DNA of 64,000 nt from Acidimicrobiia bacterium (GTDB lineage: Bacteria; Acidobacteriota; Vicinamibacteria; Vicinamibacterales; SCN-69-37): positions 20,670-84,669 of the forward strand of contig BTVE01000009.1 in NCBI GenBank assembly GCA_045862915.1, in the 5' to 3' direction. How positions within the stretch are numbered: the stretch's first letter is position 1; each line of letters begins with the position of its first letter. Below are positions 6,761 to 64,000 of this stretch, in pieces. The notes below the pieces were generated by a model. The model was not told the DNA's origin and did not search any database. It was given only the letters and a program-made list of their open reading frames with translations. Made by a program: the position numbers and the translations under genes.

Positions 6761-6776
6761 TCGGCACTCTAGCAAT

Positions 6777-6801: not shown

Positions 6802-6807
6802 GTCAGC

Positions 6808-7020: not shown

Positions 7021-7212
7021 TCACCACGTGTCGTCCAGCACCGCGTCGATGTCTTTTCGGAGCTTGGCCGGGTCGACAGACGGGAGCCGGCGCCATCGTT
7101 CCAATAAGGCGCTGGCGGACAGGGGACGCGCCGTCAACGGCCGCAGTTCAGCGATACCCCGACCGTCGCGTGTAACCACCAGTGATTCGCCGCCGATTAC
7201 GCGATCGAGCAC
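7021..7212 (-). CDS. Phd/YefM-like antitoxin, possibly N-terminally decayed
   Basis: LDRVIGGESLVVTRDGRGIAELRPL matches the Phd/YefM core. The frame stays open upstream to 7299, but the only start codon is the GTG at 7212, so about 15-20 N-terminal residues appear to be missing. Confidence 0.45.
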   Translation of the reverse strand: MLDRVIGGESLVVTRDGRGIAELRPLTARPLSASALLERWRRLPSVDPAKLRKDIDAVLDDTW

Positions 7213-8622: not shown

Positions 8623-8779
8623 TGGATAGCCTCCCCTCAGACACCTTAGCGACTTGCTGTGACGGGCGCAACCAGGCGTCCCCATCGGCCGGGACGTCAC
8701 CGTACCCGTGATTCCACTGCACAGCGTCGCGGGCTCAAAACGCTGGTGCAGCCAGACCAGTCGGACACGATGGACCTGT

Positions 8780-9160
8780 CTACACCGGATCGCGTCCCAC
8801 TGCCTGGATCCGCTCGTCGAGTGTCACGAGGTCTGCGCCCAGGGCGCCGGCGAGCCAGACGTAACTCGCATCATAGGCGGTGAGCCCGGTCTCCTGCGCC
8901 ACAAGCACGGCGTCCGTCAGGTTGACGTCGACCCAGGTAATCCCACCGTCATCGAGCGCAGCACGGAGCGCTGTCAGGATGGCGACGCCGGATGCCGGTT
9001 CGCGGCGGGCCTTCTTCCAGGCCACATTCGCGAGTTCAAATTGCAGCAGTGTCGGCGCAAACAGCTCGGCATCGTGCAACAGCGGCTCGATGCGCGCGGC
9101 ATCGGGCTCCCCGAAGATCACGGCCGACAGCGCCGACGCGTCCGGAACAACACGCCTCAC
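8780..9160 (-). CDS. vapC: Type II toxin VapC (PIN domain)
   Basis: 126 aa. Acidic PIN residues lie in VVPDASAL, FELANV, LTAYDASYVWLA and LVTLDERI. There is a 4-nt overlap with the upstream antitoxin. Confidence 0.85.
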   Translation of the reverse strand: MRRVVPDASALSAVIFGEPDAARIEPLLHDAELFAPTLLQFELANVAWKKARREPASGVAILTALRAALDDGGITWVDVNLTDAVLVAQETGLTAYDASYVWLAGALGADLVTLDERIQAVGRDPV

Positions 9161-9396
9161 CGCGTATCCCTCGTCTCACGCACGATCGCCACCGCATCCG
9201 CCGGCGTCGCCAGGCCCAGTGATTCGGCTCGACGCCGGATCCTGGCGGCATCAAAGCGCACGGGCTGGACGGCGGCTTCCAGAATGGACATCAACTCGCC
9301 CTGCAGCGACCGATGGTTGCGGCTGGCTCGTGCCGCCAACGCCCGGGCCAACGGCGCTGGAACGTTCTTGATGGAGAGGCTGGTCGCAGGTTCCAT
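9157..9396 (-). CDS. vapB: Ribbon-helix-helix (Arc/FitA-like) VapB antitoxin
   Basis: The internal ATG at 9396 gives 79 aa: MEPATSLSIKNVPAPLARALAARASRNHRSLQGELMSILEAAV, the typical RHH antitoxin N-terminus. The longer track ORF (to 9612) overlaps the polB 3' end and is rejected. Confidence 0.8.
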   Translation of the reverse strand: MEPATSLSIKNVPAPLARALAARASRNHRSLQGELMSILEAAVQPVRFDAARIRRRAESLGLATPADAVAIVRETRDTR

Positions 9397-9425
9397 TGTG
9401 GTTTCATTGTAGCGCCATAATGGAA

Positions 9426-11717
9426 CTATCCGCAGACTTCCAGCACGGGCCGGATGGTCGCGACATCCCCCGCAAACAGCGAGGGCTGATCGGCGCTGCC
9501 GAACACGACGGCGAAGTCTTCCGCGCTGAACGCACACTGCAGACGGCTGGCGTAAATCTCCGTCAGTAGTCGGATGTAGTGCTCGACGTCGTAGTCGCGC
9601 GCGTCCACCCATGCACGTTCCTGATCCGACAACGACTCGGCGTCCGGGTCGGGCACCACACCCCCGTGCCCACGGAACGTACGATACACGCGCACACGTT
9701 CACCCAGGCGCCAGTCGGTGCGCCCGGCCGCGAGCAGGGCCTCGTACACCAGCTCGCGTCGCTCCCCCCTGACGCGCAGGTAGTCCTCCGGTGACTTGGT
9801 GAGTCGGACGCGGGAGGACACATCCCACGTGCTCAGTGCGCGGCGTCTGAGGTCGGTGACGGCCTCCACGTACGCCGCCCGCACACCCTGTACGTTGCCA
9901 GTCAACAACTCGCGAACCGCGCGCTGGAGGAACGCGGCCGCATACGGCTCCGTGCGGCTGGACCGGAACGCCACGCCACGCAGCAGCAGCCGATCGTCGT
10001 AGGTGAGCAACGCGTAGTTCTTGGGTTCGTGCGACAACATCGCCCGGTAACGCCCCTCGTATTCCAGGTGCACGAGCGGGGGCAACAGTGTCGCCACGTC
10101 GGCCACCAGACGACGTTCGTCGGCCTCTGACCATCCCTCGGGAACGGCAAAGTAGACGCCATCGGTATCGGCTTCGATGAGCTGCACACCACGCAGCCGC
10201 AAGGCATCACAGATCACCGTGAGGGTGTCGCGTCCGCGGCGGGTCACCTCATTGGCCGCGCGCACATCGGCGAACCTGGTGAGTCCTCCGCCGGCAGCCA
10301 TGTAGCCATACGCCGAATTGACGACCAGTTTGATTGCCGCCGACATGGCCTCATGCGCGTGGCGCTCCGCCGATCCGGGCGCCGCCTGGCGCGCCGCTGC
10401 CTTGGCGGCGAGCCGATGCTCCACGAGTTGATCGACGATGGTGAGGAGGACGCCGAGATGATCGCGCGCCGGCCCGATGCGGAACGCGCGCATCAGCGAC
10501 GGGTAGAGGCTTGCGACGTCAGCTTTGACAACCCGGTGGGCGACCCCCGTGGCAAACAGGTGCAGGGCTGCGCCGGTGTGGATGGTGCCGTCGGAATCCT
10601 GGTGCGGCGGCAGCGCAGTCCCCGTACGCAGATACGCCCGCACGAGCAGTGGATCCAGCATGCCGGTCGCGGGGCCCGCATCCGCCAATCGCTCGTAGCG
10701 GCGAGGCACCATCTGCGCGAGCGCAAACGATGCGCCACCCAGCAGGCGAGCCACACCGGCGGCCTCGTCCACGTCTGCGCGCGCGTATCGGCGCACGCGT
10801 TCAGGATCCGCGCGGTACACCCGAAACACGTCATCGCCGCGGATCAGCTCTCGCTCAGGCCCCACAAGGCCCAGGTGTCGCGCCACGGCTTTCAGTCCGT
10901 AACCAGGCAACTCGCGCACGGCGAAGTCGTACGCGCGTGTGGCGTCGAGTGTATCGATCAACTCACGGCCGGGTGCGACGAGCCTCACCCGACGCCCGGA
11001 GCCGTCATCGTCGCGCATGCCGCGCCGCGCAGCCCGACGCCGCAGCCCGAGTCCGGGCACCCGGCCCAGTTGCAATCGGACGCCGAGGACGCGGGCGCGA
11101 TGTTCAAGAAACGGCAGGTCGAACCCGTGCAGGTTGTGATTTTCGATGACGTCCGGATCGGCCGTTCGCACTGTCGACTCGAGTTGTTGCAGCAGGGTTC
11201 GTTCTCCGGCGTCGTCAACCGATGGCGCTTCCAGCAACATCGTGGTGCCGTCGGGGAGACGCACGGCGATCAGAAAAACCCTGTCGCGGCGCGGGTCGAG
11301 CCCCGTCGTTTCAATGTCGAACTGCAGGCGACGCAGGTCGTCGAAGGTCAGGCCGCGGAAGTAGTTCCGGCCGGTCGCGACGAGGTACTGCTCCTCGGGC
11401 GGCAGGTTGAGCACGCGACGTTTGTCAGGAGCCGGCCCGCAGGCGTGCCTGAGTGCTGCGGTGAGCGCGCGGCCGGTGCCCGCGCTGACGTGGAACCGCA
11501 GCGCGCCTGGCCCCTCAAGTTCGTGCCATGTGAGGCCTTCACCCGCGAATGGCTCAACATCGTCAACGATCGCCCACGGCCGGTACTGATCGTCTTCCGC
11601 GCGCAGTGTGCCGTTGATCCGGCGCCAGACGCGCGCGCGTCCGCTGCCGTCCGCCCAGATCGAGACGATGCCGGGAGTTGGGTCCCAACCCCACAGCCAT
11701 TCGTCCTGAATCGACAC
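9426..11717 (-). CDS. polB: Family B DNA polymerase (Pol II-like) with intact 3'-5' exonuclease
   Basis: ExoI FDIETTGL, ExoII NHNLHGFDLPFL, ExoIII YARADVDE. Motif A DVASLYPSLM, motif B KLVVNSAYGYM, motif C IEADTDGVYF. The GTG start shares one base with the stop of the upstream gene (TAGTG). Confidence 0.88.
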   Translation of the reverse strand: MSIQDEWLWGWDPTPGIVSIWADGSGRARVWRRINGTLRAEDDQYRPWAIVDDVEPFAGEGLTWHELEGPGALRFHVSAGTGRALTAALRHACGPAPDKRRVLNLPPEEQYLVATGRNYFRGLTFDDLRRLQFDIETTGLDPRRDRVFLIAVRLPDGTTMLLEAPSVDDAGERTLLQQLESTVRTADPDVIENHNLHGFDLPFLEHRARVLGVRLQLGRVPGLGLRRRAARRGMRDDDGSGRRVRLVAPGRELIDTLDATRAYDFAVRELPGYGLKAVARHLGLVGPERELIRGDDVFRVYRADPERVRRYARADVDEAAGVARLLGGASFALAQMVPRRYERLADAGPATGMLDPLLVRAYLRTGTALPPHQDSDGTIHTGAALHLFATGVAHRVVKADVASLYPSLMRAFRIGPARDHLGVLLTIVDQLVEHRLAAKAAARQAAPGSAERHAHEAMSAAIKLVVNSAYGYMAAGGGLTRFADVRAANEVTRRGRDTLTVICDALRLRGVQLIEADTDGVYFAVPEGWSEADERRLVADVATLLPPLVHLEYEGRYRAMLSHEPKNYALLTYDDRLLLRGVAFRSSRTEPYAAAFLQRAVRELLTGNVQGVRAAYVEAVTDLRRRALSTWDVSSRVRLTKSPEDYLRVRGERRELVYEALLAAGRTDWRLGERVRVYRTFRGHGGVVPDPDAESLSDQERAWVDARDYDVEHYIRLLTEIYASRLQCAFSAEDFAVVFGSADQPSLFAGDVATIRPVLEVCG

Positions 11718-12991
11718 TACTTCTCTTTCAGCAGCTTTTCGATCAGGCGCGCGAGTGCCGGCTCGTTCGCATCGTCGTACCCGACCATGATCAGGCGGAT
11801 GCGGCCGTGACGATCGATGATGTGGATCTGCGGGATCCCACCAACCTCGTAGGCGGCGTCGTTGGGGTTGTCAAAGTGGGTGTACGTGCCGTCGGCATTG
11901 CGCACCGAGGGCTTGCGCTGGTTCTCGACGGCGATGGGCACCGACAGCCCTTCCTTCGCGAAGTACTCACGGTCGCGTGCGAACTCGTCATCGGCCGAGA
12001 TGCCGCGATCGGTGCCGAAGTATCCGTACAGCTCCGTCGCAAACACGGCGCGGAATCCCTGTGGGCCGTACTTGGCAAGCAGGCGCTTGATGCCCGGGTA
12101 ACTCTCCTTGCAGGGGCCGCACCAGTGCGCGGTGAACTCGAGCAGTGTCACGGCGCCGGTCATCGGGAGCGTGGTATTCGGATCGGCGTTCAGCCATCGC
12201 GGCGCAGAGATCGGCGCGCCAATCGTTCCGACCAGCGCGTAACGCGCCACTACGGGGTCGAGCATCTCCGAGGCGTTCCGGATGTCGGCCCACTGCTGCT
12301 TTGCTGACTGCAGCAGCGCACGAGCGCGGTCGGTATCGCCCTGACCGGCCCAGGCTTCGGCCATGTTGATATGCGCGCTCACCACAATGGAGCCGAACTG
12401 GCTGCGCTGTGCCGGCGTGAACGTCTTGGCGCGATTGATGATCCACGTCGAGTGTTTGATGATGCCGGCATCGATGTCGTCGCCGCGGTAGTAGCCGTTC
12501 AGGCGTGAGTGCACCGCCATCTGCTGGCCGAGCAGGTCACCAGGTAACTGGTCGAGTGCGTCCGCCCAGGCTTCGAGGCGTGCATTTCGGGCATCCGATT
12601 TGGGTTCAAGTAGTCCCGCCGCAATCGCCTGCTCCAGCACCTGCGCGCGAATGGGTGCGGGCATCGTGCGGGATGCGAGCGCCCTGGTCACGGCTGCTGA
12701 CGCCAACTCAGGCTGACCGGCTTCGCCATACAGTGAGATGAGCGCCGGCATGTCCGCGTCGGTCGCGCGGTCGAGCGCAAACTGCGCCGCACACGTTTTG
12801 GCCATGGCCCGCTTCTCTGCGTCGATCCGCCGCACATCATCAGCGGTGATGGAGCGTGCGAGCGCCTGCTGCGCGGTGCGCACGTAGGTGCGCGCCTGGG
12901 TGAGACACCCGTCCGGTGTGGCAGGTTGCGGGGTCTGCGGCTGAGCCGGGTGGGCCAGCAGCGTCACAAACATCACGGTGGGGATGAACAT
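11717..12991 (-). CDS. TlpA-like periplasmic thiol-disulfide oxidoreductase with a long helical N-terminal domain
   Basis: Signal peptide MFIPTVMFVTLLAHPAQP. The C-terminal thioredoxin fold carries LLEFTAHWCGPCKESYPG. Confidence 0.8.
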   Translation of the reverse strand: MFIPTVMFVTLLAHPAQPQTPQPATPDGCLTQARTYVRTAQQALARSITADDVRRIDAEKRAMAKTCAAQFALDRATDADMPALISLYGEAGQPELASAAVTRALASRTMPAPIRAQVLEQAIAAGLLEPKSDARNARLEAWADALDQLPGDLLGQQMAVHSRLNGYYRGDDIDAGIIKHSTWIINRAKTFTPAQRSQFGSIVVSAHINMAEAWAGQGDTDRARALLQSAKQQWADIRNASEMLDPVVARYALVGTIGAPISAPRWLNADPNTTLPMTGAVTLLEFTAHWCGPCKESYPGIKRLLAKYGPQGFRAVFATELYGYFGTDRGISADDEFARDREYFAKEGLSVPIAVENQRKPSVRNADGTYTHFDNPNDAAYEVGGIPQIHIIDRHGRIRLIMVGYDDANEPALARLIEKLLKEK

Positions 12992-15826: not shown

Positions 15827-17566
15827 TCAGTCCTTCTTGAACGTGACGAAGACGTCGATCGTGACGTCGACCGGCCGGCCGTTGAGTTCCGTCGGCGTGA
15901 ACTGCCACTGCTGCACGGCCTGGATCACGGCCGCAGCCGCATCCGGATTTGCCGCCGGTGCGCCCTCATCGTCGACCACGGTGGCGTCCTGGACCACTCC
16001 GCCCGTGTCGATCCGGGCTCGCACGTGCACCGGGAACTCACCGGACCCGAGTCCAGCGGGACACGCCGGCAACACGTGTTTGATTTTTTTCGGTTCACGG
16101 ATCTGCCCGCCGATGCGAACCGGCTGCTGTTGCGCTGAGAGCACTGGGAACAACGTCTCCCAGAGGCGTGTGGACAGGGAGGCGCACGTGACGGTCACCG
16201 TCTCGCGTAATGTACCGAGCTTGAGTGTCAACGTGTGGTCAATCGTACCGCCCGTCGCCTGCACGACAACCTTCACCGGTGCGAAGCCGGAGAGTCTCGC
16301 CTCGAGGTTGTAGGTGGCCGGAGCCACGTTGGGAAAGCTGAAGCGCCCGGGTGCGTTGGTGCGGACCTCGGTCTGAGCGCCGGTCTGCGGATCGGTCAGC
16401 GTGACCGTCGCGCCCGGAATCCGTCCGCCCGACTGGTCTTCCACCTGCCCGGTGATCGTGGCTGTCTGCGGCGTCACACGGCGCGGTGGGACAACGGCCG
16501 GCGGTGTCGTGGTGCCAGGCGCCGGTGGTGCCGCGGGCCGGACGACCGAGGGCGGCTGCTGTTCGAGCTGCGCGAGGTCGTCGGTCGCCGGCGAGACACT
16601 CGCTGCAGCAATGGGGAGACTGACGACAAGTGTGGCGAGTGCCGCGAGGCTCCATCCCCAACGACTGACCGGCGTGCGACGCGTGTGATTCTGCAACATG
16701 GCAACGATTCTCCTCTCGAGCATGGACGGGTGAACGATGGCCGGGGCCGACATCCACGGAGTGTGTCGCGCCGAAAGCCGGTGTGAGAGTTCAAGCAGGT
16801 GTGTGGCGTACTCGGTGGCGCGCACACCCTGGCGCAGCACCGCATCATCACAGGCGTGTTCGCTGTGCCGGCGTAACTGACGGCAGGCGAGCCAGACCAG
16901 CGGATGAAAGGAATACAGGACGCGGACGGCCTCACCCAACGTCTGGATCGCCGCATCAGCGCGGGCAATGTGGGCGACCTCGTGCTGGAGCACCACACGC
17001 CACCGTTCGTCGCTCCAGGACGTCGCGTCCGTGGGCACGATGATGCCAGGCCGGCGGGTGCCGTAGGTGACCAGCAGCGACTCCGACTCGGTTTGCAGCA
17101 ATCGAATCGGCCGGCTCACGCCAAAGTCGGACGCCACGCCGGAGAGGATCACGCGCGGACCGCCGTGTATCTCGCGAGCGGTTGTCCGCAGGCGCGCGAG
17201 CCGGTAGCGGCCGGTCAACAGCCCGGCCAGCAGCACCAGCGAGGCCGCGCCCCACAGGCCGATCACCACCCTCATTGGCGTGAGGAACGGCTCGCCGGCA
17301 GGTGTCTCGATTGTGGTCGCGATGTCCGCCGCGTCCGACGCGAACGTCACTCCTGACGAGGTCGCGGCTGTCGCGGCGGGCCACTGAAAGACCGTGCGTG
17401 CGGGCAGCGTCCACTCAAGCAGCGGCATGGCGGCCGCAGCGACAAGCGCCGACGTGAGGATGGCGTGCCGCAGTGCCGCGGAGCGCGAGCGGAGCAGCCA
17501 CGCCAGCAGCAGGCCAATCGCCAGGACGATGGTGACATCGACAACGACGGCAAGTAGAAACGTCAT
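15827..17566 (-). CDS. BlaR1-like M56 membrane metalloprotease fused to CarboxypepD_reg and TonB_C-like domains
   Basis: N-terminal TM segments, Zn motif LQHEVAHIARAD, GQVEDQSGGRIPGATVTLTD...FSFPNVAPATYNLEARLSGF, and a C-terminal TonB_C-like GGVVQDATVVDD...AVQQWQFTPTELNGRPVDVTIDVFVTF. No penicillin-binding sensor domain was seen. Confidence 0.8.
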   Translation of the reverse strand: MTFLLAVVVDVTIVLAIGLLLAWLLRSRSAALRHAILTSALVAAAAMPLLEWTLPARTVFQWPAATAATSSGVTFASDAADIATTIETPAGEPFLTPMRVVIGLWGAASLVLLAGLLTGRYRLARLRTTAREIHGGPRVILSGVASDFGVSRPIRLLQTESESLLVTYGTRRPGIIVPTDATSWSDERWRVVLQHEVAHIARADAAIQTLGEAVRVLYSFHPLVWLACRQLRRHSEHACDDAVLRQGVRATEYATHLLELSHRLSARHTPWMSAPAIVHPSMLERRIVAMLQNHTRRTPVSRWGWSLAALATLVVSLPIAAASVSPATDDLAQLEQQPPSVVRPAAPPAPGTTTPPAVVPPRRVTPQTATITGQVEDQSGGRIPGATVTLTDPQTGAQTEVRTNAPGRFSFPNVAPATYNLEARLSGFAPVKVVVQATGGTIDHTLTLKLGTLRETVTVTCASLSTRLWETLFPVLSAQQQPVRIGGQIREPKKIKHVLPACPAGLGSGEFPVHVRARIDTGGVVQDATVVDDEGAPAANPDAAAAVIQAVQQWQFTPTELNGRPVDVTIDVFVTFKKD

Positions 17567-52647: not shown

Positions 52648-54033
<1,386 letters not shown>

Positions 54034-54053
54034 CCCTCGGAAGCCCCTACGCG

Positions 54054-54692
54054 GTGCGGCTCGTGATGTTGGGCCCCCCGGGTGCCGGCAAAGGCACCCA
54101 GGCGGAGCGGTTCGCGAGAACGCACGGGATTCCGAAGATCTCGACCGGCGACATCCTGCGCGAGGCCGTGCAGGCCGGCACAGAGATGGGCCGCCTGGCG
54201 CGGGAAGTGATGGACGCCGGCCGGCTGGTCAGCGACGACATCATGATCGGCATCGTGCGTGAACGCCTCGAACGGCCCGATGCCGACGCGGGGTTCGTGC
54301 TGGATGGGTTCCCGCGGACGGTGGGTCAGGCGCAGGCGCTCGACACGATGGTGGACGAAGCGCAGCCGCTGGTCATCGTGGACGTCGAGGTGCCGACCGA
54401 GATTCTGGTGCAGCGTCTGCGGACGCGCCGGATTTGCGGGTCGTGCGGCGTCGGCGCCCCTCCGGGGGCGAAGGTGTGCGCCAAGTGCGGCGGAGCGCTG
54501 GTGCAGCGCGTCGACGACAACGAACATGTCGTGCGTGAGCGGCTGTCGGTGTACGAGCGGCAGACGCAGCCCATCGTGGACTTCTACGCAGGGCGCAAGA
54601 CATTCCGGTCGATCGACGGCGATCAGACCGAGGACAGTGTGGCGGCGGATCTGGCGGCGGCGGTGGCGTCGGCGCTTGGAGCCTACCGGTGA
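54054..54692 (+). CDS. adk: Adenylate kinase (Cys4 lid)
   Basis: The GTG at 54054 gives MRLVMLGPPGAGKGTQAERFA (P-loop). The lid is CGSCG...CAKCGG. The alternative GTG at 54030 overlaps the secY stop. Confidence 0.92.
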   Translation: MRLVMLGPPGAGKGTQAERFARTHGIPKISTGDILREAVQAGTEMGRLAREVMDAGRLVSDDIMIGIVRERLERPDADAGFVLDGFPRTVGQAQALDTMVDEAQPLVIVDVEVPTEILVQRLRTRRICGSCGVGAPPGAKVCAKCGGALVQRVDDNEHVVRERLSVYERQTQPIVDFYAGRKTFRSIDGDQTEDSVAADLAAAVASALGAYR

Positions 54693-55465
54693 TTGCCTGC
54701 CGGTCGACCGCCGAACTCGAGCGGATGCGCGTAGCCAATCGGCTGGTGGCTCAGGTGCTCGAGGTGCTCGAAGGCATGGTTGAGCCGGGGGTGACCACGG
54801 CGGACCTCGACGAAACGGCCGAGCGGCTGGTGCGTGAGGGCGGTGCGGTGCCGGCGTTCAAGGGGTATCGCGGGTTTCCCGCGACCCTGTGTACGTCGGT
54901 CAACCAGGAGGTGGTGCATGGGATTCCGTCCCGGCAGCGTCCCCTGGCCGCGGGTGACATCGTGTCGATCGACATCGGCGTGAAGCTCGACGGGTACTAC
55001 GGCGACTCGGCGGTGACCGTGCCGGTGGGACCGGTGCCGGAACGGACGCAGGATCTGCTCCGGGTCACGCGTGAATCGCTTGAACGCGCGATCGAGCAGG
55101 TGAAGGTTGGCGGCCGCGTCTCGGATATCGGGGCGGCGGTGCAGCAGTGGGTCGAAGCGCACGGGTTCACGGTGGTGCGCGAGTTTGTGGGCCACGGCAT
55201 CGGGCAGCAGCTGCACGAAGAGCCGCAGGTGCCCAACTACGGGCAGCCGGGCCGCGGTCCGGTGCTGGCCGAGGGCATGGTGCTGGCCATCGAGCCGATG
55301 GTGGCGATGGGCCGGCCCGAGGTGAAAGTGCTGCGGGACGGCTGGACGGCGGTCACGCGCGACGGCAGCCTGGCGGCGCACTTCGAGCACACGGTGGCCG
55401 TGGGCGCGGATGGCCCGATGATCCTGACGGCGAGACAGACCGCGGTGGAGACGCCTGCGGGGTGA
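54689..55465 (+). CDS. map: Type I methionine aminopeptidase
   Basis: VHGIPS...GDIVSIDIGV..DGYYGDSA...GHGIG..LHEEP...LAIEPM are metal-ligand motifs. Confidence 0.95.
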   Translation: MIACRSTAELERMRVANRLVAQVLEVLEGMVEPGVTTADLDETAERLVREGGAVPAFKGYRGFPATLCTSVNQEVVHGIPSRQRPLAAGDIVSIDIGVKLDGYYGDSAVTVPVGPVPERTQDLLRVTRESLERAIEQVKVGGRVSDIGAAVQQWVEAHGFTVVREFVGHGIGQQLHEEPQVPNYGQPGRGPVLAEGMVLAIEPMVAMGRPEVKVLRDGWTAVTRDGSLAAHFEHTVAVGADGPMILTARQTAVETPAG

Positions 55466-55704
55466 GCGCCGAGGATGACGCGCCGGACGGGCGGGCGCAG
55501 ACGGTGGTAGACGGGACGGTGAAGGCGGTGTTGCCGCAGGCGCTGTACCGGGTGGTGGTGGAAGGTGGACGTGAAGTGACGGCGCATGCGGCGTCGGGCC
55601 CCACGGTCAACTTCATTCGGCTGCTGGTGGGTGATCGGGTGGCGGTGGCGTTGGCCCCCCACGATGCGGGACGCGGACGGGTCATCCGGAAGCTGCCGCG
55701 GTGA
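55462..55704 (+). CDS. infA: Translation initiation factor IF-1-like S1-domain protein (divergent)
   Basis: It sits at the canonical position between map and rpmJ. The GTG at 55462 overlaps the map [64 protein letters not shown] follows the IF-1 fold pattern with unusual substitutions. Confidence 0.75.
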
Positions 55705-56667: not shown

Positions 56668-57297
56668 ATGGCGAGATATATCGGTCCCGTCTGCCGGCTG
56701 TGCCGGCGTGAAGGCATGAAGCTGTTTCTCAAGGGTGAGCGCTGCTACACGGAGAAGTGCGCCATCGAGAAGCGCAACGTGCCGCCAGGACAACACGGCC
56801 GTTCGCGTCGCGCGAAGGTGGCCGGCTACGGCATCCAGCTGCGTGAGAAGCAGAAGGTCAAGCGTACGTATGGCGTGCTCGAGAACCAGTTCCGGCGCTA
56901 CTTCGAGGCCGCGGATCGGCAGAAGGGCATCACCGGCGAACTGCTGCTCCAGTCGCTCGAACGTCGTCTGGACAACGTGATTTACCGCATCGGTTATGCC
57001 ACCTCTCGCGCGCAGGCGCGTCAGCTGGTGCGCCACGGCCACTTCACGGTGAACGGCCGCAAGGTCGACATCCCGTCGTTTGCGGTGCGTCAGGGCGACA
57101 TGATCGGCATCAAGGCGACGAGCCTCGAGAACGCGTCGATTGCGCACGCGCGCGAAGAGGTGAAGGGCCGCGGCATCCCCGAGTGGCTGTCGCTGGATGC
57201 GGCCGGCACGTCGGCGCGTATTGCGTCGCTGCCGACGCGCGAGCAGATCAACCTGCCCGTGCAGGAACAGCTCATCGTCGAGTTGTATTCGAAGTAA
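56668..57297 (+). CDS. rpsD: 30S ribosomal protein S4
   Basis: [31 protein letters not shown]...[11 protein letters not shown]. Confidence 0.97.
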
Positions 57298-57298
57298 C

Positions 57299-57353
57299 CG
57301 TGGGGCGGGTCTTCAGACCCGCCGGAAACGTGGGGCAGGCCTTCAGGCCTGCC
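57299..57353. repeat. Two tandem hairpin repeats (copies B and C) of the CGTGG, 8-bp stem, TTCA loop family
   Basis: CGTGG GGCGGGTC TTCA GACCCGCC lies at 57299-57323 and CGTGG GGCAGGCC TTCA GGCCTGCC at 57329-57353. Both stems are perfect, with a 30-nt period, starting 2 nt after the rpsD stop. Confidence 0.7.
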
Positions 57354-57480
57354 AATCTCGCCGGGATGTCCCCGGCGGCCAGTCACCGGCCCGCAGCTTG
57401 TCAGGCCTGCAGCGGGAGGCCGGTGACCGTAACCCGCAGGTCTGGAGCCCGCCGGGGCTCGTTGGCGAAAGGACGAAGCG

Positions 57481-58443
57481 ATGTTGTGGAAGAATTTTCA
57501 GCGGCCGAAGCGGCTTGAGTTCGAACGGGAGACCCTGACCGACCGGTTTGGCCGGTTCACGGCGCAGCCGTTCGAGCGCGGATTCGGCACGACCGTCGGC
57601 AACGCGATGCGTCGCGTGCTGCTGTCATCGATCGAAGGCGCCGCAGTCACGGCCGTCAAGGTCGAAGGCGTGCTCCACGAGTTCTCCCCCATCCAGGGCG
57701 TGGTCGAGGACGCGACGGACCTGATCCTCAACCTCAAGCAGATCCCGCTCAAGGTGCACACCGATCAGCCCAAGACGTTGACCGTCCGTGTGACCAAGCC
57801 GGGCGAAGTGCGCGCCAAGGACATCCAGGTGGACGCGGACGTCGAAATCCTCGAACCCGAAGCGCACATCGCGACGGTGAGCGAGGGCGGCAAGCTCGAG
57901 ATGGAACTGCGCGTCAAGCGCGGTCGCGGCTACGTGTCGGCCGACAAGAACTTCGACGAGGACCTCGGCATCGGCTGGATCCCGATTGATTCGGTGCACT
58001 CGCCGATCAAGAAGGTGAACTACGTCGTCGAAGCGGCGCGTGTCGGCCAGACCACCGACTACGACAAGCTCACGCTTGAAGTGTGGTCCAACGGCGCGGT
58101 CACGCCGCACGACGCGGTGTCGCTGGCAGCGAAGCTGATTCGCGACCACTTCTCGATCTTCGTGAGCCTGGAAGACGCCGGCGAGTCGGCGTTTGACGCA
58201 AGCGGCGATGCGCCGAGTTCGTCGGGCAACGAACACCTCGACAAGAGCGTCGAGGAGCTCGAGCTGTCGGTGCGGTCGTACAACTGCCTGAAGAACGCGA
58301 ACATCCGGACGATTCGCGAGCTGGTGCAGAAGAGCGAGGGCGAGATGCTGAAGACGAAGAACTTCGGCCGCAAGTCCCTCAATGAGATCAAGGAAATCCT
58401 GACCACCATGGGCCTCAGCCTCGGCATGCGGCTGGACGGCTGA
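57481..58443 (+). CDS. rpoA: DNA-directed RNA polymerase subunit alpha
   Basis: [27 protein letters not shown]... and the C-terminal domain [24 protein letters not shown]. Confidence 0.97.
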
Positions 58444-58477
58444 TCAGGACACAGCAGAACGGAACGAGAGCGAGAGT

Positions 58478-59074
58478 ATGCGTCACCGAGTCGCACATCG
58501 AAAACTGGGCCGCGTCACCGAGCACCGCATCGCGATGCTCCGGAACCAGGCGTCGGACCTCATCAAGTACGGGCACATCCAGACGACCGTCGCGCGTGGC
58601 AAGGAACTGCGCCCGTTCGTCGAGCGGCTGATCACCATCGCCAAGCGCACGCTGGGTGAAGGCGAGAAGTCGATCAAGTCGGTCAACGCGCGCCGCATGG
58701 TCGCCGTCGACATCGTCGACAAGCGCGTCGTCAAGACGTTGTTCACCGACATCGCGCCGCGGTACGCGGAACGTAAAGGTGGATACACGCGCCTGCTGCG
58801 CATGGGTTACCGCCGCGGTGACAGCGCCGAAGTCGCAGTCATCGAGCTGCTCGGCAGCGAATACGACCCGAACGCCGAGGTCAAGGCAACAAAGGACGCC
58901 GAAGCTGCGGGTGACGGCGCTGAGAAGCCGAAGAAGAGCGTTGGCGCGCGTCTGCGTCAGGCCATCGGCGGCGGCAGCCGCGCGAAGGAAAGCGGCGGCG
59001 CCAAGAAGGCCGACAAAACCGCCAAGGGCGGCAAGCGCGTCAACACGCCGCGCAAGGCTGGCGGCGGGTCGTAG
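58478..59074 (+). CDS. rplQ: 50S ribosomal protein L17 with a ~70-aa Lys/Ala/Gly-rich C-terminal extension
   Basis: MRHRVAHRKLGRVTEHRIAMLRN...GGYTRLLRMGYRRGD, then a KATKDAEAAGDGAEKPKK...KGGKRVNTPRKAGGGS tail. Confidence 0.96.
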   Translation: MRHRVAHRKLGRVTEHRIAMLRNQASDLIKYGHIQTTVARGKELRPFVERLITIAKRTLGEGEKSIKSVNARRMVAVDIVDKRVVKTLFTDIAPRYAERKGGYTRLLRMGYRRGDSAEVAVIELLGSEYDPNAEVKATKDAEAAGDGAEKPKKSVGARLRQAIGGGSRAKESGGAKKADKTAKGGKRVNTPRKAGGGS

Positions 59075-59154
59075 TTCCGGGGTTCCGTGGTTCCGGGGTT
59101 CCGTGGTTCCGGGGTTCCGGGGTTCCGGGGTTCCGGGGTTCCGGGGTTCCGAAG
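59075..59154 (+). repeat. Octanucleotide tandem repeat (TTCCGGGG/TTCCGTGG, 10 units) forming a G-quadruplex motif
   Basis: It starts at the base after the rplQ TAG. There are 7 GGGG and 2 GTGG tracts spaced by TTCC. The last five GGGG tracts are consecutive (59111-59146). Confidence 0.9.
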
Positions 59155-59159
59155 TAATG

Positions 59160-59200
59160 AAGGGGCCGGTGGCGAAAGCTGCCGGCCCTTTGTCTTTCTT
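59160..59200 (+). terminator. Intrinsic terminator of the ribosomal super-operon; copy 1 of a 32-nt repeat
   Basis: AAGGGGCCGGTGGC-GAAA-GCTGCCGGCCCTTT forms a 14-bp stem with G-U wobbles and a GNRA-type loop, followed by GTCTTTCTT. Confidence 0.75.
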
Positions 59201-59339
59201 GTTACCCTAAGTGTTGTCTAAGTGTCTTCGTGGACTCCTGTGTCTCACGACCACCGTCCACGTAGAATGCTAGGCCGGTTGATCATTGCTTGCTACCACA
59301 GGACTCCCATGCTAAGGTCTGACCGGGAGACAAGAGACA

Positions 59340-60461
59340 ATGAGCAGCGCTCTTCGCTGGTCCAGAGTGGCTTTGGCTGCTTGCCTTGGCTTGTATTTCG
59401 CTGCCACGCCGGGCAGCCTCAATGCGGTCTCGACGGCTGGTTCTTCGGCTCAGCGTGTCGAGGGAGCCACGTGCCAGCAAGACTTGTGTGAAATTGTTCT
59501 GACAGCGGTGACTAAGTTGCCGGAGGGGGCGCATCGCCTGCATCGCCCTGCGCTCAACGTGGTCGCTGATCCGAGCGGCAACTTCTATGTGCGCAGCGCC
59601 GACGAACGTCAAGTTGTGGTGTTCGACGGGGCGGGTCGCCAGGTGGGTACGCTCGCGGTTCCTGTGGAAGGACAGCGAATCGGCCTTCGCCTCGTCCCCG
59701 TTATCGGTGGGACCGTGCTGGCTTGGGTCGGAGCCTCCGGTGCAGGCTTCGAGCTGTTACCGAACCTGACAGCTCGCGCTTGGAAAGGCGCGATGCCGTT
59801 TCTGCCGGTATATGTCGGCAGCGATCGCTCCATGATCGTCTCGCAGCAAATCAGGACACCTCAGCAGGTCGGGTTTCCGATCCACCTCGTTGGCGCAGAC
59901 GGGACGGTGCTTCGGTCGTTTGGCTCAGACGTCGCTGAATATCGAGCCGACCTGCGGCTGCTTCTGGAAAGAGTAGTGGCACCAGGAACGAACGGACTCC
60001 TTTGGGCGATTCCCAAGGGACGCTACTCGATCGAGCGTTGGGATCCAACTACCGGTAAGTTGATCGGAAGGGTGTCAGTCAAATCAAATTGGTTTGTTGA
60101 ATCAAAGACATTTCGCGTGGACACCAACACAAAGCCGAACGCGGTGATTGAAGGCATTTGGGAGGACGGTGGCGTGGTCTGGACGCTCATTAGGGATGGG
60201 GCCAACGACTGGAAGCCTACAGTCAAGCCTGAGCAGTCATGGAGCGTTAGAGATTACAACTCCGAGCATGACTGGGTGCTTGAAGCGGTGAATGGGACTA
60301 CTGGGGAGGTTCTTGCCAGTCGCCGTGTTCCGCACGCTCTGTCTCGAGTTGGAGTTGGACCACTCGTGGCTTCGTATGCCCTGACGCAGGCGGGCGAAGC
60401 CGATGGGCTCGCGATTTGGCGGCCCGAAGTGCGTCGGAGAGGAACTCAGTCATGGCAGTAG
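59340..60461 (+). CDS. Secreted hypothetical protein (373 aa), lower-GC islet
   Basis: Signal peptide MSSALRWSRVALAACLGLYFAATPGSLNA. GGGAGA lies upstream. Repetitive beta-strand-like segments suggest a possible propeller, which is unproven. Many A/T-ending codons, unlike the flanking genes. Confidence 0.6.
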   Translation: MSSALRWSRVALAACLGLYFAATPGSLNAVSTAGSSAQRVEGATCQQDLCEIVLTAVTKLPEGAHRLHRPALNVVADPSGNFYVRSADERQVVVFDGAGRQVGTLAVPVEGQRIGLRLVPVIGGTVLAWVGASGAGFELLPNLTARAWKGAMPFLPVYVGSDRSMIVSQQIRTPQQVGFPIHLVGADGTVLRSFGSDVAEYRADLRLLLERVVAPGTNGLLWAIPKGRYSIERWDPTTGKLIGRVSVKSNWFVESKTFRVDTNTKPNAVIEGIWEDGGVVWTLIRDGANDWKPTVKPEQSWSVRDYNSEHDWVLEAVNGTTGEVLASRRVPHALSRVGVGPLVASYALTQAGEADGLAIWRPEVRRRGTQSWQ

Positions 60462-60970
60462 TTAGACGCGGTTTCGTCGGCGTGTTTACTGTGGCACTCA
60501 TCGTTGCGATTGCAATTCCATCCTTGTCGAAGGATGCGATCGCGTCTTCCGTCGTGCTCAACGCGGAGCTGAGTTCTGGAGTCAGTTGCGATATCGACTG
60601 CGGCGAGCAATACTGCGATGGCGGCTATCACGATGCTTGGGAGACTCACCCTAACTTCTACTTTTGGACGCGGAACGGCGGAGTGCATACGGGCGTCGAT
60701 GATTGCCGTGCCGGCACTTGTGACACCATGCATGGCCCTTGGTGCAATCCGATGGAAGAAGACCGTCCAGACATGGACGCCATCCGGAAGTACTCTAGGG
60801 ACTCTGATGCGCAGTCAATCGCAGCGGTGGTGAGTCGGGATCCGCGCGTGACGTTCAACAGCGATCGGTCGGCGGTACAGGTGATCGACTGCAAGGGAAG
60901 TGTCGTCATGCATCTGCCCGTTCGATTCCAAGTAGCGAGGCGTGTCGCGTCTCTGCTAAACGCGAACTAG
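60452..60970 (+). CDS. Small secreted Cys-rich hypothetical protein (172 aa)
   Basis: The ATG at 60452 gives MAVVRRGFVGVFTVALIVAIAIPSLS (a signal or anchor). The mature part has 8 Cys, including SCDIDCGEQYCDGG and DDCRAGTCDTMHGPWCNP. It overlaps the upstream gene by 10 nt. Confidence 0.55.
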   Translation: MAVVRRGFVGVFTVALIVAIAIPSLSKDAIASSVVLNAELSSGVSCDIDCGEQYCDGGYHDAWETHPNFYFWTRNGGVHTGVDDCRAGTCDTMHGPWCNPMEEDRPDMDAIRKYSRDSDAQSIAAVVSRDPRVTFNSDRSAVQVIDCKGSVVMHLPVRFQVARRVASLLNAN

Positions 60971-60992
60971 AGCGAGCCGAATCGTGGTTGCT

Positions 60993-61030
60993 ATCGCAGA
61001 CGCACGGCTGTTAGGTCGGGCGTCTGCGAT
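60993..61030 (+). terminator. Stem-loop after the Cys-rich ORF (possible terminator or attenuator, no T-run)
   Basis: ATCGCAGACGC, 16 nt, GCGTCTGCGAT is a perfect 11-bp inverted repeat. Confidence 0.35.
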
Positions 61031-61088
61031 GTGACCTGCGGTGCGAATCTAGCTTCCATTAGTCGCGATAGCATCGAGGAAACAGGTC

Positions 61089-63533
61089 TTGGATTTGCGG
61101 TATGTGGTTCGGAGACTCAGGAACCGGCCATTTCGGACCTTCCTGTGCATTCTGGTCCTTTCACTGGGTGCAGGTGGAGCCTCAGCGACCCATGCGGTCG
61201 TTCGTCACATCCTCACACCGGAGCATCCCTGGCCAGCGGCCCATGAGTTGTTTGTGGTACACCGCGTGGCCCTCGGCCTACGAAACAACCCAGCATACGC
61301 GGATTCCTGGGACCGGCAGCCCCTCTCTTGGATGGACTGGGAGCAAATCAGGGCGCTCGGTACGTTTGAGACTGTCGGGGCGTGGAGCGCGACTCAACAG
61401 ATTGTCCGGACCGAGCAGTCAGAAGCCGTCGATGCCGCTTACGCATCGAGCAGCTATTTCTCGGTATTGGGTATAGCCCCGGCGCTCGGCCGGACGTTTA
61501 CGGACGAGGATGACTCTGAAAGCACCGATAACGTCATTCTGACTCACCTCGCGTGGCGTCGCTACTTCGGCGGCAGAGAGGACGTCGTTGGCCAGCGCCT
61601 CACGCTCGCTTCGCACCCGGATGCGGCTGGCCGGCCGATGGTAGTCGTCGGGGTACTGGGGCCAAGCGTCAGCTTTCCAGGGCACGCTCCAGAGTTGCTC
61701 CTGCCTCTCGGGCACCTCGCCTACGCAGGGACTTTTCCTGAGAACCGGCTGTTAAGATTGCTCGGTCGTCTGCGGCCAGGCGTTTCGGTTTCGAGTGTCG
61801 AGTCTCTGGCACCCTTCGTTGTTGGAGAGGGGGCGACGCCGGGGGGGAAGAGCGCGAGGCTTGTCGATCTGGACAGTGAGCTTAGCGGTCGTCTGCACAC
61901 GCCAATGTCGATACTGTTCGGAGGTTCGGTCCTGCTATTGGTTCTGGCGTGTTCGAGTGTTGGTGGCATCCTCTTGGTCGACATGAGACAGCGCCGAGGT
62001 GAGACCGCCATTCAACTTGCGCTCGGGGCGAGTGGCAGTCGGCTTTTGCGGCAGTTTCTTGGAGAAACTCTTGTGATCGGCGCACTGGCGGTGATTGGGG
62101 GCACCGCCTTGGGTGTGTGGTTAACTGAAGTTCTGGCTATCGTCGCCCCGAAGCAGCTTCAGTCGTTTGGGGCCATCAGACTCGACCCGGTAGTCGTCCT
62201 CCTGATTTGCTGCGCGTTGGTAGGGATACTCGCGGTATTTGCGGTGGTGGTGTCATTCCAGGAGATCTTCGCCAAGCTGAGGCCTGCCGCCTCAGGCCAG
62301 TTTCAACGGTGTGTCGTCGCTGGTCAAGTGGCGTTCGCAGTTTTCCTAGTCAGCACCGCAGCAATGTTCGGACATGCTTTCCTTGCTCTTCGGTCCGCGC
62401 CACTTGGATTCGAGCCACAGGGGGTCGCGCTGGCCCAGATCAGGTTGGTTCACGCCTCTCGAGTCGTCGACATTATGCAGAGGGGTTCGCTCGATAGCCG
62501 TGTGGAAAGCATTGGAAGTCGAAGCGCCGCGTTGGCCAGGTCTGCCGGAGCCTGGAGGCAGACCGCTGCGCTGTTGAGCCGGATCGAGGCGCTCCCAGGC
62601 GTCACGGCCGCAGCGGCATCCAGCAACGTTCCATTCTCAGCCATCACGTCCAGGTTCGTCCCCTTCAGTCTGGAAGGGGATAACGATGGCGTGGACCATA
62701 CGTTTCTGACGCGGATCGTCAGCGAGAGGTACTTCGAGGTACTACGAGTGCCCCTTGAATCCGGACGAGTGTTCTCGCCGGAGGATCGATCGATCGCCGC
62801 TCCACAACCAGTCGTGGTCTCAAGCGCGGCACAAACACGCTCCAAGAAGTTTGAACAACCTGGAGCACGACTGTCCACCATCGCTGGTGGTTATCCTCAC
62901 ATTGTTGTCGGCGTGGTTGGACACAGCCGGGAGCGCCCCGTCACGATCAATAGCAGCGAACCCCCGGCCATGTATTTTCTCAACCTCCGGCCGGATCAGG
63001 TGAGGTACCTTCTGGTGCGCGTTTCCGGGAATGTTTCGACAATGCTCCCGGCGCTCCGCGAGGCAATCGAAGAGTTCGATCCCGGTATCAAGGTCATGAG
63101 CACTGCTTCACTCGCTACGATCGTCGATGATTCGGTTGCTGGCGAGCGCTTTCGTGCTGCTCTGTCATCGATTTTCGGGGGTTGTGCTCTCGTGCTGGCA
63201 GCGATCGGATTGTTTGGTCTGGCAGTTGAACGCGTGGCGCAAAGGCAGAGTGAACTTGCTATTCGTGCCGCTCTAGGTGCTCCGCGTGAAGCCCTTAGTT
63301 GGTTGATAGTGAGAGAGACCGGGCTCACAGCGCTAGTTGGTACGGCGATAGGGCTGGCAGCATCGGTAGCTCTTTCGATTCTGGCTCGGGCGTTGATGCA
63401 TGACGTTACAACGTTGCCTCTTGGATTTCTCGCGCTCGTAGTGGTAGCGACTCTGGCCACCTGTGCGCTCGCTATTGCCGGCCCGGCTTGGAGGGCTGGC
63501 CGCGTCGAGGCCGCTCGCCTCGTTTTGCGGTGA
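61089..63533 (+). CDS. Duplicated FtsX/MacB-type ABC permease without a cognate ATPase (ADOP-like)
   Basis: 814 aa. N-terminal DLRYVVRRLRNRPFRTFLCILVLSLGAG. There are two FtsX-type 3-TM bundles, each preceded by a large periplasmic domain (MRQRRGETAIQLALGASGSRLL and VAQRQSELAIRAALGAPREAL). TTG start is uncertain. Confidence 0.8.
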   Translation: MDLRYVVRRLRNRPFRTFLCILVLSLGAGGASATHAVVRHILTPEHPWPAAHELFVVHRVALGLRNNPAYADSWDRQPLSWMDWEQIRALGTFETVGAWSATQQIVRTEQSEAVDAAYASSSYFSVLGIAPALGRTFTDEDDSESTDNVILTHLAWRRYFGGREDVVGQRLTLASHPDAAGRPMVVVGVLGPSVSFPGHAPELLLPLGHLAYAGTFPENRLLRLLGRLRPGVSVSSVESLAPFVVGEGATPGGKSARLVDLDSELSGRLHTPMSILFGGSVLLLVLACSSVGGILLVDMRQRRGETAIQLALGASGSRLLRQFLGETLVIGALAVIGGTALGVWLTEVLAIVAPKQLQSFGAIRLDPVVVLLICCALVGILAVFAVVVSFQEIFAKLRPAASGQFQRCVVAGQVAFAVFLVSTAAMFGHAFLALRSAPLGFEPQGVALAQIRLVHASRVVDIMQRGSLDSRVESIGSRSAALARSAGAWRQTAALLSRIEALPGVTAAAASSNVPFSAITSRFVPFSLEGDNDGVDHTFLTRIVSERYFEVLRVPLESGRVFSPEDRSIAAPQPVVVSSAAQTRSKKFEQPGARLSTIAGGYPHIVVGVVGHSRERPVTINSSEPPAMYFLNLRPDQVRYLLVRVSGNVSTMLPALREAIEEFDPGIKVMSTASLATIVDDSVAGERFRAALSSIFGGCALVLAAIGLFGLAVERVAQRQSELAIRAALGAPREALSWLIVRETGLTALVGTAIGLAASVALSILARALMHDVTTLPLGFLALVVVATLATCALAIAGPAWRAGRVEAARLVLR

Positions 63534-63567
63534 TACCAGGAGGTCGGAAGGCCAACAATATGACCGA

Positions 63568-63606
63568 AAGGGGCCGGTGGCGAAAGCTGCCGGCCCTTTT
63601 CCTTTT
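63568..63606 (+). terminator. Intrinsic terminator; copy 2 of the 32-nt repeat
   Basis: AAGGGGCCGGTGGCGAAAGCTGCCGGCCCTTT is identical to 59160-59191, followed by TCCTTTTCC. Confidence 0.75.
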
Positions 63607-63664
63607 CCGAACACTCCGCGCGCTCCGTGGCTCCCGTGCAACGGTGTTGAACGATAATTCCCCG

Positions 63665-64000
63665 GTGACACTACCCCCGCTTTCAGAGTTCATTGCCGCG
63701 CGTGCGCGGATGGAACCCCACGTCAAACACACACCGCTCCTGACGTCGCGGGTGCTGTCCGAGAAGACCGGCTACGACGTGCGGCTGAAGGCCGAGTTGT
63801 TTCAGCGGACGGGGTCGTACAAAATTCGCGGTCCGCTGAACAAGTTCACCTTTCTGACAGACGAGCAGAAACGGCGCGGTGTGATTTGTTCTTCCGCCGG
63901 CAATCACGCGCAGGGTGTTGCCCTGGCGGCGAGAATTCACGGCATCCGCGCGGTGGTTGCGATGGCCGAAAATGCCACGCCCTCAAAGATCGCGGCTACG
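63665..64000 (+). CDS. Threonine ammonia-lyase / PLP-dependent dehydratase, 3'-truncated by the window edge
   Basis: My translation is TLPPLSEFIAARARMEPHVKHTPLLTSRVLSEKTGYDVRLKAELFQRTGSYKIRGPLNKF...VICSSAGNHAQGVALAA, with the PLP-lysine motif SYKIRG. Start uncertain (GTG 63665, 63644, or TTG 63647). Confidence 0.8.
   Translation, partial: MTLPPLSEFIAARARMEPHVKHTPLLTSRVLSEKTGYDVRLKAELFQRTGSYKIRGPLNKFTFLTDEQKRRGVICSSAGNHAQGVALAARIHGIRAVVAMAENATPSKIAAT

Follow-up and report, generated by a model that had tools for sequence, protein, structure and literature searches.

A compositionally foreign three-gene islet between two identical terminator hairpins downstream of rplQ in an uncultured acidobacterial lineage

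The window analysed here is a stretch of 64,000 nucleotides (nt) from the genome of a soil acidobacterium, deposited as Acidimicrobiia bacterium and placed by GTDB in the Acidobacteriota (Vicinamibacteria, Vicinamibacterales, SCN-69-37; assembly GCA_045862915.1, contig BTVE01000009.1, forward strand, positions 20,670 to 84,669); all positions given without a contig name are counted from its first letter. Close to its right end lies an islet of three genes that separates rplQ (encoding ribosomal protein L17) from a gene of the PALP family, and that is enclosed by two identical copies of a terminator hairpin. The upstream neighbour rplQ (58478..59074, + strand; Pfam Ribosomal_L17 at 1e-32, TIGR00059 at 1.4e-38) encodes a protein of 198 aa with a Lys/Ala-rich C-terminal extension and is the final gene of the S13-S11-S4-rpoA-L17 operon, as seen in the gene calls of a contig of the same species (L017). 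The downstream neighbour, referred to as the PALP gene (63665..64000, + strand; Pfam PALP at 3.4e-25, TIGR01127 at 8.7e-34), is a pyridoxal-phosphate-dependent serine/threonine dehydratase-like gene of which the 5' part is present before the window ends, and 65 nt of non-coding DNA lie between the second hairpin and this gene.

A first-pass annotation, made by a model from the letters alone, had reported a perfect 32-nt direct repeat at the two ends of the islet. An exact search bore this out: the 32-mer AAGGGGCCGGTGGCGAAAGCTGCCGGCCCTTT occurs exactly twice in the window, both times on the + strand, at 59160-59191 and 63568-63599. No third copy was found in the window when up to 3 mismatches were allowed (none either in 100 shuffles), and there were no extra copies in the additional 5 kb past the window that are covered by contig L017. 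RNA folding returned the 14-bp stem, the GAAA loop and the T-rich tract that had been described for each copy, 3 of the 14 pairs being G-U, with an energy of -28.4 kcal/mol for copy 1 and of -31.4 kcal/mol for copy 2, in which the stem lengthens to 16 pairs. The tails that follow the two copies read TTTGTCTTTCTT and TTTTCCTTTTCC, respectively. Because the minus-strand RNA folds markedly worse, the hairpin is strand-specific and a terminator of + strand transcripts is to be expected; in a terminator scan of the window copy 1 was the top match. The hairpin combines a G+C-rich stem-loop with a U-tract, lies 3' of a gene on the same strand and shows covariation among its orthologues, and is thus a predicted intrinsic terminator. 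Copy 1 (attL-like, 59160..59191, + strand) was assigned as the native terminator of rplQ on the basis of the exact 32-mer, the RNA fold and the orthology of the hairpin and its left flank with those of relatives, and copy 2 (attR-like, 63568..63599, + strand), on the basis of the 32-mer and the fold, as the predicted terminator of the islet genes, which would insulate the PALP gene. Identity between the copies ends where the symmetric stem-loop does (14+4+14 nt); beyond the 32 nt we found a weak extension to 38 nt at 95% identity, and only the T-tails agree slightly further. As DNA the palindrome is imperfect, with three G-T/C-A mismatches. Written with R for the 32-mer, the integrated junctions are GAAGTAATGA-R-GTCTTTCTTGTT and ATATGACCGA-R-TCCTTTTCCGAAC.

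The islet starts with a non-coding 5' region of about 48% GC (59192..59339, + strand), in which direct reading of the sequence distinguishes the T-tail of copy 1, a CTAAGTGT motif that is duplicated and the -10-like sequence TAGAAT. These 148 nt are identical in the strains represented by contigs L017 and L049 and presumably form the promoter region of the islet, even if a promoter scan called no consensus sigma-70 promoter in them. Their homology to the spacers between rplQ and the PALP gene of relatives is not significant, with only the -10-like ACRTAGAATG in common.

The first gene (59340..60461, + strand) encodes a beta-propeller of 373 aa, secreted or lipoprotein-like, that belongs to an uncharacterised family. 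The protein begins with a signal sequence and had no match in the Pfam and NCBIfam scans. Its AlphaFold model (predicted local distance difference test score, pLDDT, of 78) retrieved six-bladed propellers of the NHL/WD40 type in Foldseek with template modelling (TM) scores of 0.5-0.6, so that the protein is, according to the model, a generic six-bladed beta-propeller. The family is represented in environmental data by 634 representative clusters at E<=1e-30. The second gene (60452..60970, + strand; taken from the list of open reading frames, ORFs) overlaps the first by 10 nt and encodes a protein of 172 aa with an N-terminal hydrophobic helix and a Cys/His-rich domain. Its conserved pattern is CDIDC...HDAW...DCR..C...HGP.C, the Cys and His residues being invariant across four homologues. 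It had no Pfam or NCBIfam match, and its structure model (pLDDT 54) was too poor for a fold search. Between the second gene and the third lies an internal hairpin with perfect arms of 11 bp and without a T-tract (60993..61030, + strand; DNA fold -19.6 kcal/mol, z -6.4).

The third gene (61089..63533, + strand) encodes a duplicated MacB/FtsX permease of the ADOP type (acidobacterial duplicated orphan permease), with a length of 814 aa when read from TTG 61089 or of 809 aa from GTG 61104. It resembles the ADOP family (TIGR03434) in its full-length match (E 1.8e-144), in having two halves, each with a MacB_PCD and an FtsX stretch (Pfam), and in lacking an adjacent ATPase gene, none being present in the islet. 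It differs in that its score of 482.8 bits stays under the cut-off of 622.3 and in belonging to a conserved module of three genes. The islet ends with 34 nt of non-coding DNA (63534..63567, + strand; AGGTCGGAAGGCCAACAAT), which are similar to the sequence left of the rplQ terminator in a related lineage (L030). The islet is tidy, consisting of the upstream region, three genes on the + strand and a terminator, and is free of pseudogene remains. Its proteins, scanned against Pfam and NCBIfam, include no transposase and no integrase or relaxase, whole or fragmentary, and there are no terminal inverted repeats at its ends. Elsewhere in the window, no recombinase, integrase, relaxase or IntI was found among 18 large ORFs, and no tRNA genes are present. 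An Rfam scan of 57000-64000 gave only a sub-threshold match to the small RNA BjrC68, which was caused by the terminator itself.

The DNA between the hairpins had been described from hand counts as less GC-rich and richer in A/T-ending codons than its surroundings, and quantification fully supports that description. The interior (59192-63567, 4,376 bp) has a GC content of 59.2%, against 65.2% for positions 1-59159. The GC content at third codon positions (GC3) of the three genes is 0.626, 0.647 and 0.632, respectively, compared with means of 0.853 for 17 genes of the ribosomal operon and 0.813 for 19 other genes (range over both groups 0.76-0.91), which places the islet at a z of about -5 relative to these 36 genes. 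Similarly, AGA and AGG make up 27% of the Arg codons in the islet and 3% elsewhere. The 4.4-kb cassette is thus compositionally foreign and was probably acquired horizontally.

The arrangement is not specific to one assembly. Contig L017 of the Joint Genome Institute (JGI) metagenomes is 99.1% identical over 15.5 kb and shows the same order of rplQ, hairpin, islet, hairpin and PALP gene, and L049, a contig of a different JGI project, is 97.8% identical and holds the junction of rplQ, hairpin and islet. In further samples, Logan contigs built with k=31 have a length of 4,436 bp and start and end inside the repeat, because a 32-nt repeat splits a k=31 graph. Since three independent assemblies made with larger k carry them, the islet junctions are no assembly artefact, and within the species the islet is fixed among all strains sampled.

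Between the window and L017 the divergence is 0.88% over the 10 kb upstream, against a single substitution in the 4.4-kb islet. We considered that the islet might be younger than its flanks and dropped this idea, as the upstream substitutions are concentrated in two tracts, stretches of 2 kb showing none, and the contrast is explained by recombination mosaicism. The two tracts, with 2-3% divergence, were located in the ribosomal operon at 52982-55482 (secY-adk-map-infA) and at 56982-57482 (the rpsD/rpoA junction), and judging from this distribution the core ribosomal genes are a recombination mosaic between strains.

The first-pass annotation had proposed that foreign DNA was inserted at, or recombined through, the rplQ terminator, and that the original junction was rplQ, terminator and then the dehydratase gene. 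Comparison with relatives supports both. Proteins 78-87% identical to the L17 of the window come from uncultured Acidobacteriota, and five such lineages could be compared at this site. In two of them nothing is inserted, and the order is exactly the one proposed: contigs L030-33 (L17 83%, PALP 88-89% identical) have a gap of 166 nt between rplQ and the PALP gene with one hairpin in it, and contigs L041-43 (L17 84%, PALP N-terminus 95%) have a gap of 81 nt, again with one hairpin. The other three carry something else behind the rplQ terminator, namely a gene for a 184-aa protein on the minus strand in L038 (L17 81%), a gene for a 129-aa protein plus a different second terminator in L039 (L17 78%), both before the PALP gene, and an unrelated gene in L037 (L17 85%), of which the contig stops before the PALP gene is reached. 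The flanking genes are clearly orthologous (rpoA 95-96%, PALP 86-95% identical). The three islet genes are absent from the rplQ site of all five lineages, and in none of the five does an integrase-bearing element occupy the site.

The hairpins of these relatives align with that of the window (GGGGyCCGGTGGC...GCyGCCGGnCC plus a T-run), tandem U-G/G-U wobble included. The consensus stem of the alignment has 13 pairs, 4 of which are preserved through compensatory changes on both sides. Each relative carries the orthologous hairpin once, at rplQ, and every lineage has a variant of its own, whereas the two copies in the window are identical to each other and unlike any relative. For this reason copy 2 is to be regarded as a duplicate of the rplQ-type terminator that this lineage itself possesses and not as a chance import. 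The comparison with relatives shows the hairpin to be the rplQ terminator native to the clade, and the ancestral order to have been rplQ, one terminator and the PALP gene.

A further finding was that the interval between rplQ and the PALP gene is a hot spot for insertions, since different lineages carry different small inserts there. At least four different contents were seen at the site, and the adjacent genes are conserved in the relatives and enclose differing whole-gene contents without mobility genes. A possible reason was found in lineage L030, in which the terminator lies between inverted octamer arrays (the second array being located right of the terminator), so that about 150 nt form a quasi-palindrome (-87.8 kcal/mol, z -8). 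Long quasi-palindromes are generally prone to breakage, and the quasi-palindrome in some relatives may be what makes the site a hot spot. The adjoining ribosomal operon may contribute as a highly conserved anchor for recombination.

The interval 3' of the PALP gene was also found to be variable. It contains a PadR gene and a gene for an 878-aa ADOP-like permease in L039 (12300-15260), an NMO-family gene in L030 (11688-13130) and, in the species of the window, a gene for a 459-aa protein without family matches (L017, 16091-17470). As its content also differs between lineages, the whole rplQ-PALP-SLT region can be considered variable. No terminator duplication is present around the 459-aa gene of L017.

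The sequence of the hairpin is not confined to this clade. A 24-nt core (GGCCGGTGGCGAAAGCTGCCGGCC), which includes the tandem wobble pairs, was found in the genomes of 16 GTDB representatives, which belong to about 10 unrelated lineages (Actinomycetota, Hyphomicrobium, Bacteroidota, Gemmatimonadales, Planctomycetota, Ignavibacteria, Steroidobacteraceae, a betaproteobacterium and others) in a scan that did not include the source genome and in which 8 kb were examined per matching genome. Within these 8 kb the core was present as a single copy in each of the 16 genomes, each time followed by a T-run, and the genes 5' of it include rpoC, rpoD and a peroxiredoxin gene. A 28-mer of the hairpin was found behind other genes on 5 unrelated JGI metagenome contigs, in a scan that missed known carriers, the collection being incomplete for this species. 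Viral contigs did not contain the core. The terminator of rpoC in the window itself is a different hairpin, and within the window the sequence does not form a repeated family. We read this recurrence as probable convergence on a strong terminator with a GNRA loop. Because the hairpin sequence is not unique to the locus, the repeat alone is weaker evidence for an insertion than synteny and composition.

The three genes also travel together elsewhere. The same genes in the same order were found in three other contig families, L046, L044/45 and L047, the proteins of which are 49/42/40%, 42/42/34% and 37/34/35% identical to those of the islet, respectively, and the neighbourhoods differ in all three. 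In L047 the module (1322-7154) is located 850 nt from genes for TrbC, VirB3, VirB4, CagX and TrbI (8001-12158), and it is probably the cargo of a conjugative element or lies beside one. In L044 the module is a low-GC3 islet as well (0.60-0.68, compared with 0.88-0.90 around it), and a 10-mer (CGTACGATAG) is present in both flanking intergenic regions (3083-3092 and about 7684-7693; chance expectation about 0.04), which may be a short duplication or a coincidence. In L046 a direct repeat (at least 148 nt, 77-87% identity; 3134-3315 and 7878-8026) stands on both sides of the module; it represents the 3' end of a small convergent neighbour gene, and its left copy is frameshifted. Just upstream of the module in L046 we observed an ADOP-like gene that is split into three ORFs. 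A tblastn search of PLSDB with the beta-propeller gave no match among plasmids, and no relatives of the module were found among viruses in IMG/VR. The conserved order in differing surroundings argues that the islet is a conserved functional module that moves horizontally. No published description of the three-gene module was found, and the literature that was found mentions the name ADOP in passing only.

The comparisons establish that foreign DNA was inserted at the terminator and that the entire hairpin is present on both sides of it. Taken together, we consider it likely that the islet is a horizontally acquired three-gene cassette that was inserted at the rplQ terminator, a hot spot, by single-crossover integration of a circle. 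The cassette would first have been located simply 3' of the rplQ terminator in a related lineage, in the way other genes are in L038 and L039. A fragment consisting of an array remnant, the spacer, the hairpin, its tail and the cassette would then have circularised, and one Campbell-type crossover between the circle and the resident terminator, inside the 32-nt hairpin, would have produced the order hairpin, cassette, hairpin, with RecA acting on the short homology or a recombinase encoded elsewhere and acting in trans as the catalyst. The identical hairpins would be left as attL/attR-like direct repeats. Copy 1 would still end the highly expressed ribosomal operon and the cassette would be read from its own AT-rich upstream region, while the PALP gene would keep its own promoter because copy 2 would terminate the cassette. 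A trace of the proposed origin may be left in the 34 nt that precede copy 2. This flank is unlike the left flank of copy 1 and resembles the rplQ flank of L030, with its octamer unit plus spacer (AGGTCGGAAGG-CC--AACAAT vs AGGTCCGAAGGTCCGAAACAAT); the local alignment score was 25, whereas none of 20 control flanks exceeded 22, and a score of 25 is reached by only 0.055% of the 34-mers of the window. The likeness is suggestive of a derivation from the rplQ 3' untranslated region (3' UTR) of another lineage. The direct repeat around the module of L046 also supports a crossover, because a single crossover gives such a pattern. The right flanks were compared in the same way and discarded, as their homology to the terminator tails of relatives was no better than that to control tails from unrelated genomes.

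Several observations weigh against this scenario. The likeness between the left flank of copy 2 and that of L030 is modest (p of about 0.01 after correction for about 20 comparisons), and the right flanks are T-rich and uninformative. In L038 and L039, which carry inserts at this site too, the terminator is not duplicated, and of the modules elsewhere L044 and L047 are without clear flanking repeats (one 10-mer in L044, nothing in L047). The islet does not measurably stand out as younger than the DNA around it, its near-zero substitutions matching stretches of clonal frame in the ribosomal operon. Neither a circular form nor a recombinase was seen, nor an empty site in the species itself, although contigs built with k=31 cannot resolve junctions at a 32-nt repeat. 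Moreover, 32 nt is at the lower limit for RecA-dependent recombination.

Other explanations for the duplicated hairpin were weighed against single-crossover integration. The islet could be a decayed or satellite element comparable to a cis-mobilizable element (CIME), in which case an element with a tyrosine or serine recombinase would use the hairpin as its attB at the 3' end of rplQ and the three genes would be cargo, with an integrase that was lost or never present and movement in trans. Exact direct repeats, the atypical composition and the location of a homologous cassette beside type IV secretion genes in L047 would fit such an element, and tyrosine-recombinase integrative and mobilizable elements (IMEs) at the 3' ends of ribosomal-protein genes, as well as CIMEs that keep attL and attR, have been documented (PMC5704250). 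It is nevertheless an unlikely origin, given that neither the islet nor the large ORFs of the window contain an integrase, a relaxase or fragments of these, that the islet is free of pseudogene debris, that no viral contig carries the hairpin core and that no integrase-bearing element occupies the site in the five relatives. Somewhat further removed is the idea of a self-contained mobile cassette system that lacks an integrase and recombines at terminator hairpins or at the 3' end of a neighbouring transcription unit. It is hinted at by the repeat, which is exactly the hairpin, and by the cassette of L046, which is bracketed by the duplicated 3' end of a neighbour; we rate it as rather improbable. 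Under such terminator targeting the site would have been duplicated on entry, with a recombinase encoded elsewhere or hairpin-directed breakage as the mover, a scheme to which we attach the same low probability.

A long target-site duplication would require that a structure-specific nuclease, a casposase/Cas1-like integrase or some transposase cut the hairpin or cruciform in a staggered way at its two bases, followed by capture of the cassette and filling of the gaps, so that the 32-nt palindrome was doubled. The exact match of the repeat to a symmetric stem-loop, with identity that stops at its edges, is what such an event would leave, and in relatives (L030) about 150 nt around the terminator form a quasi-palindrome, a structure of a kind known to be fragile. 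A transposase, Cas1 or terminal inverted repeats are missing, though; 32 nt far exceeds the known target-site duplications of transposons, the DNA palindrome has three mismatches and a weaker minus strand, the likeness of the left flank of copy 2 to the rplQ 3' UTR of another lineage is left unexplained, and the repeats around the cassette of L046, not being hairpins, hint against it as well, all of which makes this origin quite improbable. The repeat would be uninformative on insertion if two members of a dispersed family of repeated terminators, similar to repetitive extragenic palindromic (REP) elements, flanked the islet by chance. The occurrence of the 24-nt core in 16 GTDB genomes of about 10 lineages and of the 28-mer on 5 metagenome contigs points that way, but there is one copy per genome in 8 kb and there are only two in 64 kb at up to 3 mismatches, the rpoC terminator of the window differs, relatives have the orthologous hairpin once and at rplQ, and the copies coincide with the compositional boundaries and the break in synteny, so that a chance arrangement is very improbable. 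Finally, a 32-nt repeat breaks k=31 graphs, so that the shared 32-mer might have misled an assembler, and recombination between direct repeats could delete an interval, so that a native islet might have been lost from the relatives. An artefact is contradicted by the junctions in three independent assemblies with larger k and a native origin by a GC3 z of about -5, and repeated precise loss would be unparsimonious given the varying contents of the site and the diverged hairpins of relatives; the probability of either is negligible.

Several known systems share features with the islet. In the minimal mobile elements of Neisseria, a conserved gene pair encloses varying whole-gene cassettes that lack mobility genes and are incorporated by homologous recombination alone (PMC3898611). 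The site between rplQ and the PALP gene is similar in that it holds differing whole-gene contents per lineage, in that the cassette has no mobility genes and in that homologous recombination presumably accounts for its spread. It differs in that the variation in Neisseria is among strains of a naturally transformable organism and involves a double crossover in the flanks without duplication of the target, whereas here the content varies between related lineages at the species level, and the insert has a perfect copy of the terminator on either side. Streptococcal IMEs integrate at the 3' ends of rplL, rpmE, rpmG and rpsI, and CIMEs keep attL and attR without integration genes (PMC5704250). The islet resembles these in its location just 3' of a ribosomal-protein gene, the flanking direct repeats, the atypical composition and the lack of an integrase, and differs in that not even remnants of an integrase or relaxase are present, in that the repeat is a terminator hairpin instead of the 3' end of a coding region, and in its host, a member of the Acidobacteriota. 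Islands that bear an integrase share the flanking direct repeats, while the islet has no integrase inside or beside it.

Class C group II introns insert after intrinsic terminators (PMC4424553), and the likeness is limited to the terminator stem-loop as the landmark for insertion, since the islet has neither a reverse transcriptase nor intron RNA and these introns do not duplicate the terminator. Integron cassettes are likewise short gene units without a mobility gene inside that are bounded by imperfect palindromes. The hairpin described here, however, lacks the R''/R' core of attC sites (GTTRRRY), no IntI or attI is present in the window, and the islet consists of three genes and a 148-nt upstream region instead of one promoterless ORF. 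From transposons and insertion sequences the islet differs in the lack of a transposase and of terminal inverted repeats, and in a duplication of 32 nt, compared with the usual short 2-14 bp. The locus is a small genomic islet at a hot spot, which is of a fairly ordinary kind, with one unusual detail, the perfect duplication of an entire terminator hairpin.

The locus offers a clean and fully delimited case of a small cargo module that entered a chromosome without a mobility gene of its own. The insertion took place right behind a highly conserved operon, and the doubled terminator would spare both the ribosomal operon and the downstream gene. The comparison also defines the insertion hot spot between rplQ and the PALP gene in an uncultured acidobacterial clade, and a conserved module of a beta-propeller, a Cys/His-rich protein and an ADOP permease, which provides a starting point for explaining why orphan ADOP permeases have expanded. 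If the terminator-targeting cassette system considered above were real, it could help to explain the multiplication of ADOP paralogues in Acidobacteriota. The practical use lies mainly in the annotation and comparative genomics of Acidobacteriota, and no new principle was shown.

Some further observations were made in the flanks. The 3' UTR of rplQ contains an array of 9.8 tandem copies of the octamer GTTCCGGG (59074..59151, + strand; TRF score 142), which is separated from hairpin copy 1 by a short spacer and of which the RNA is self-complementary and folds on itself. The array is hypervariable, being 5 units longer in the window than in the 99%-identical strain of L017. Tandem arrays with a period of 7-8 nt directly 3' of the rplQ stop were seen in several lineages, with differing units (GTTCCGGG, AAGGTCCG, GGGTTCWG and GGGTCCA), and arrays were located in L030 (10586-10650 and 10698-10735), L038 (688-722 and 1385-1420), L034 (10525-10610) and L039 (16307-16385 and 12195-12250). 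In L039 similar 8-nt arrays are also present in other intergenic regions. The start of the PALP gene is preceded at about 7 nt by a -10-like hexamer (GATAAT, TAGAAT or TAAAAT) in three lineages (63647-63667 in the window, about 3040-3060 in L041 and about 10733-10751 in L030), which suggests that the PALP mRNA may be leaderless or nearly so. Two minus-strand genes elsewhere in the window, both unrelated to the islet, encode a BlaR1/M56 peptidase fused to CarboxypepD_reg and TonB_C domains (15830-17566) and a family B DNA polymerase with an RNase H-like exonuclease domain (9429-11717).

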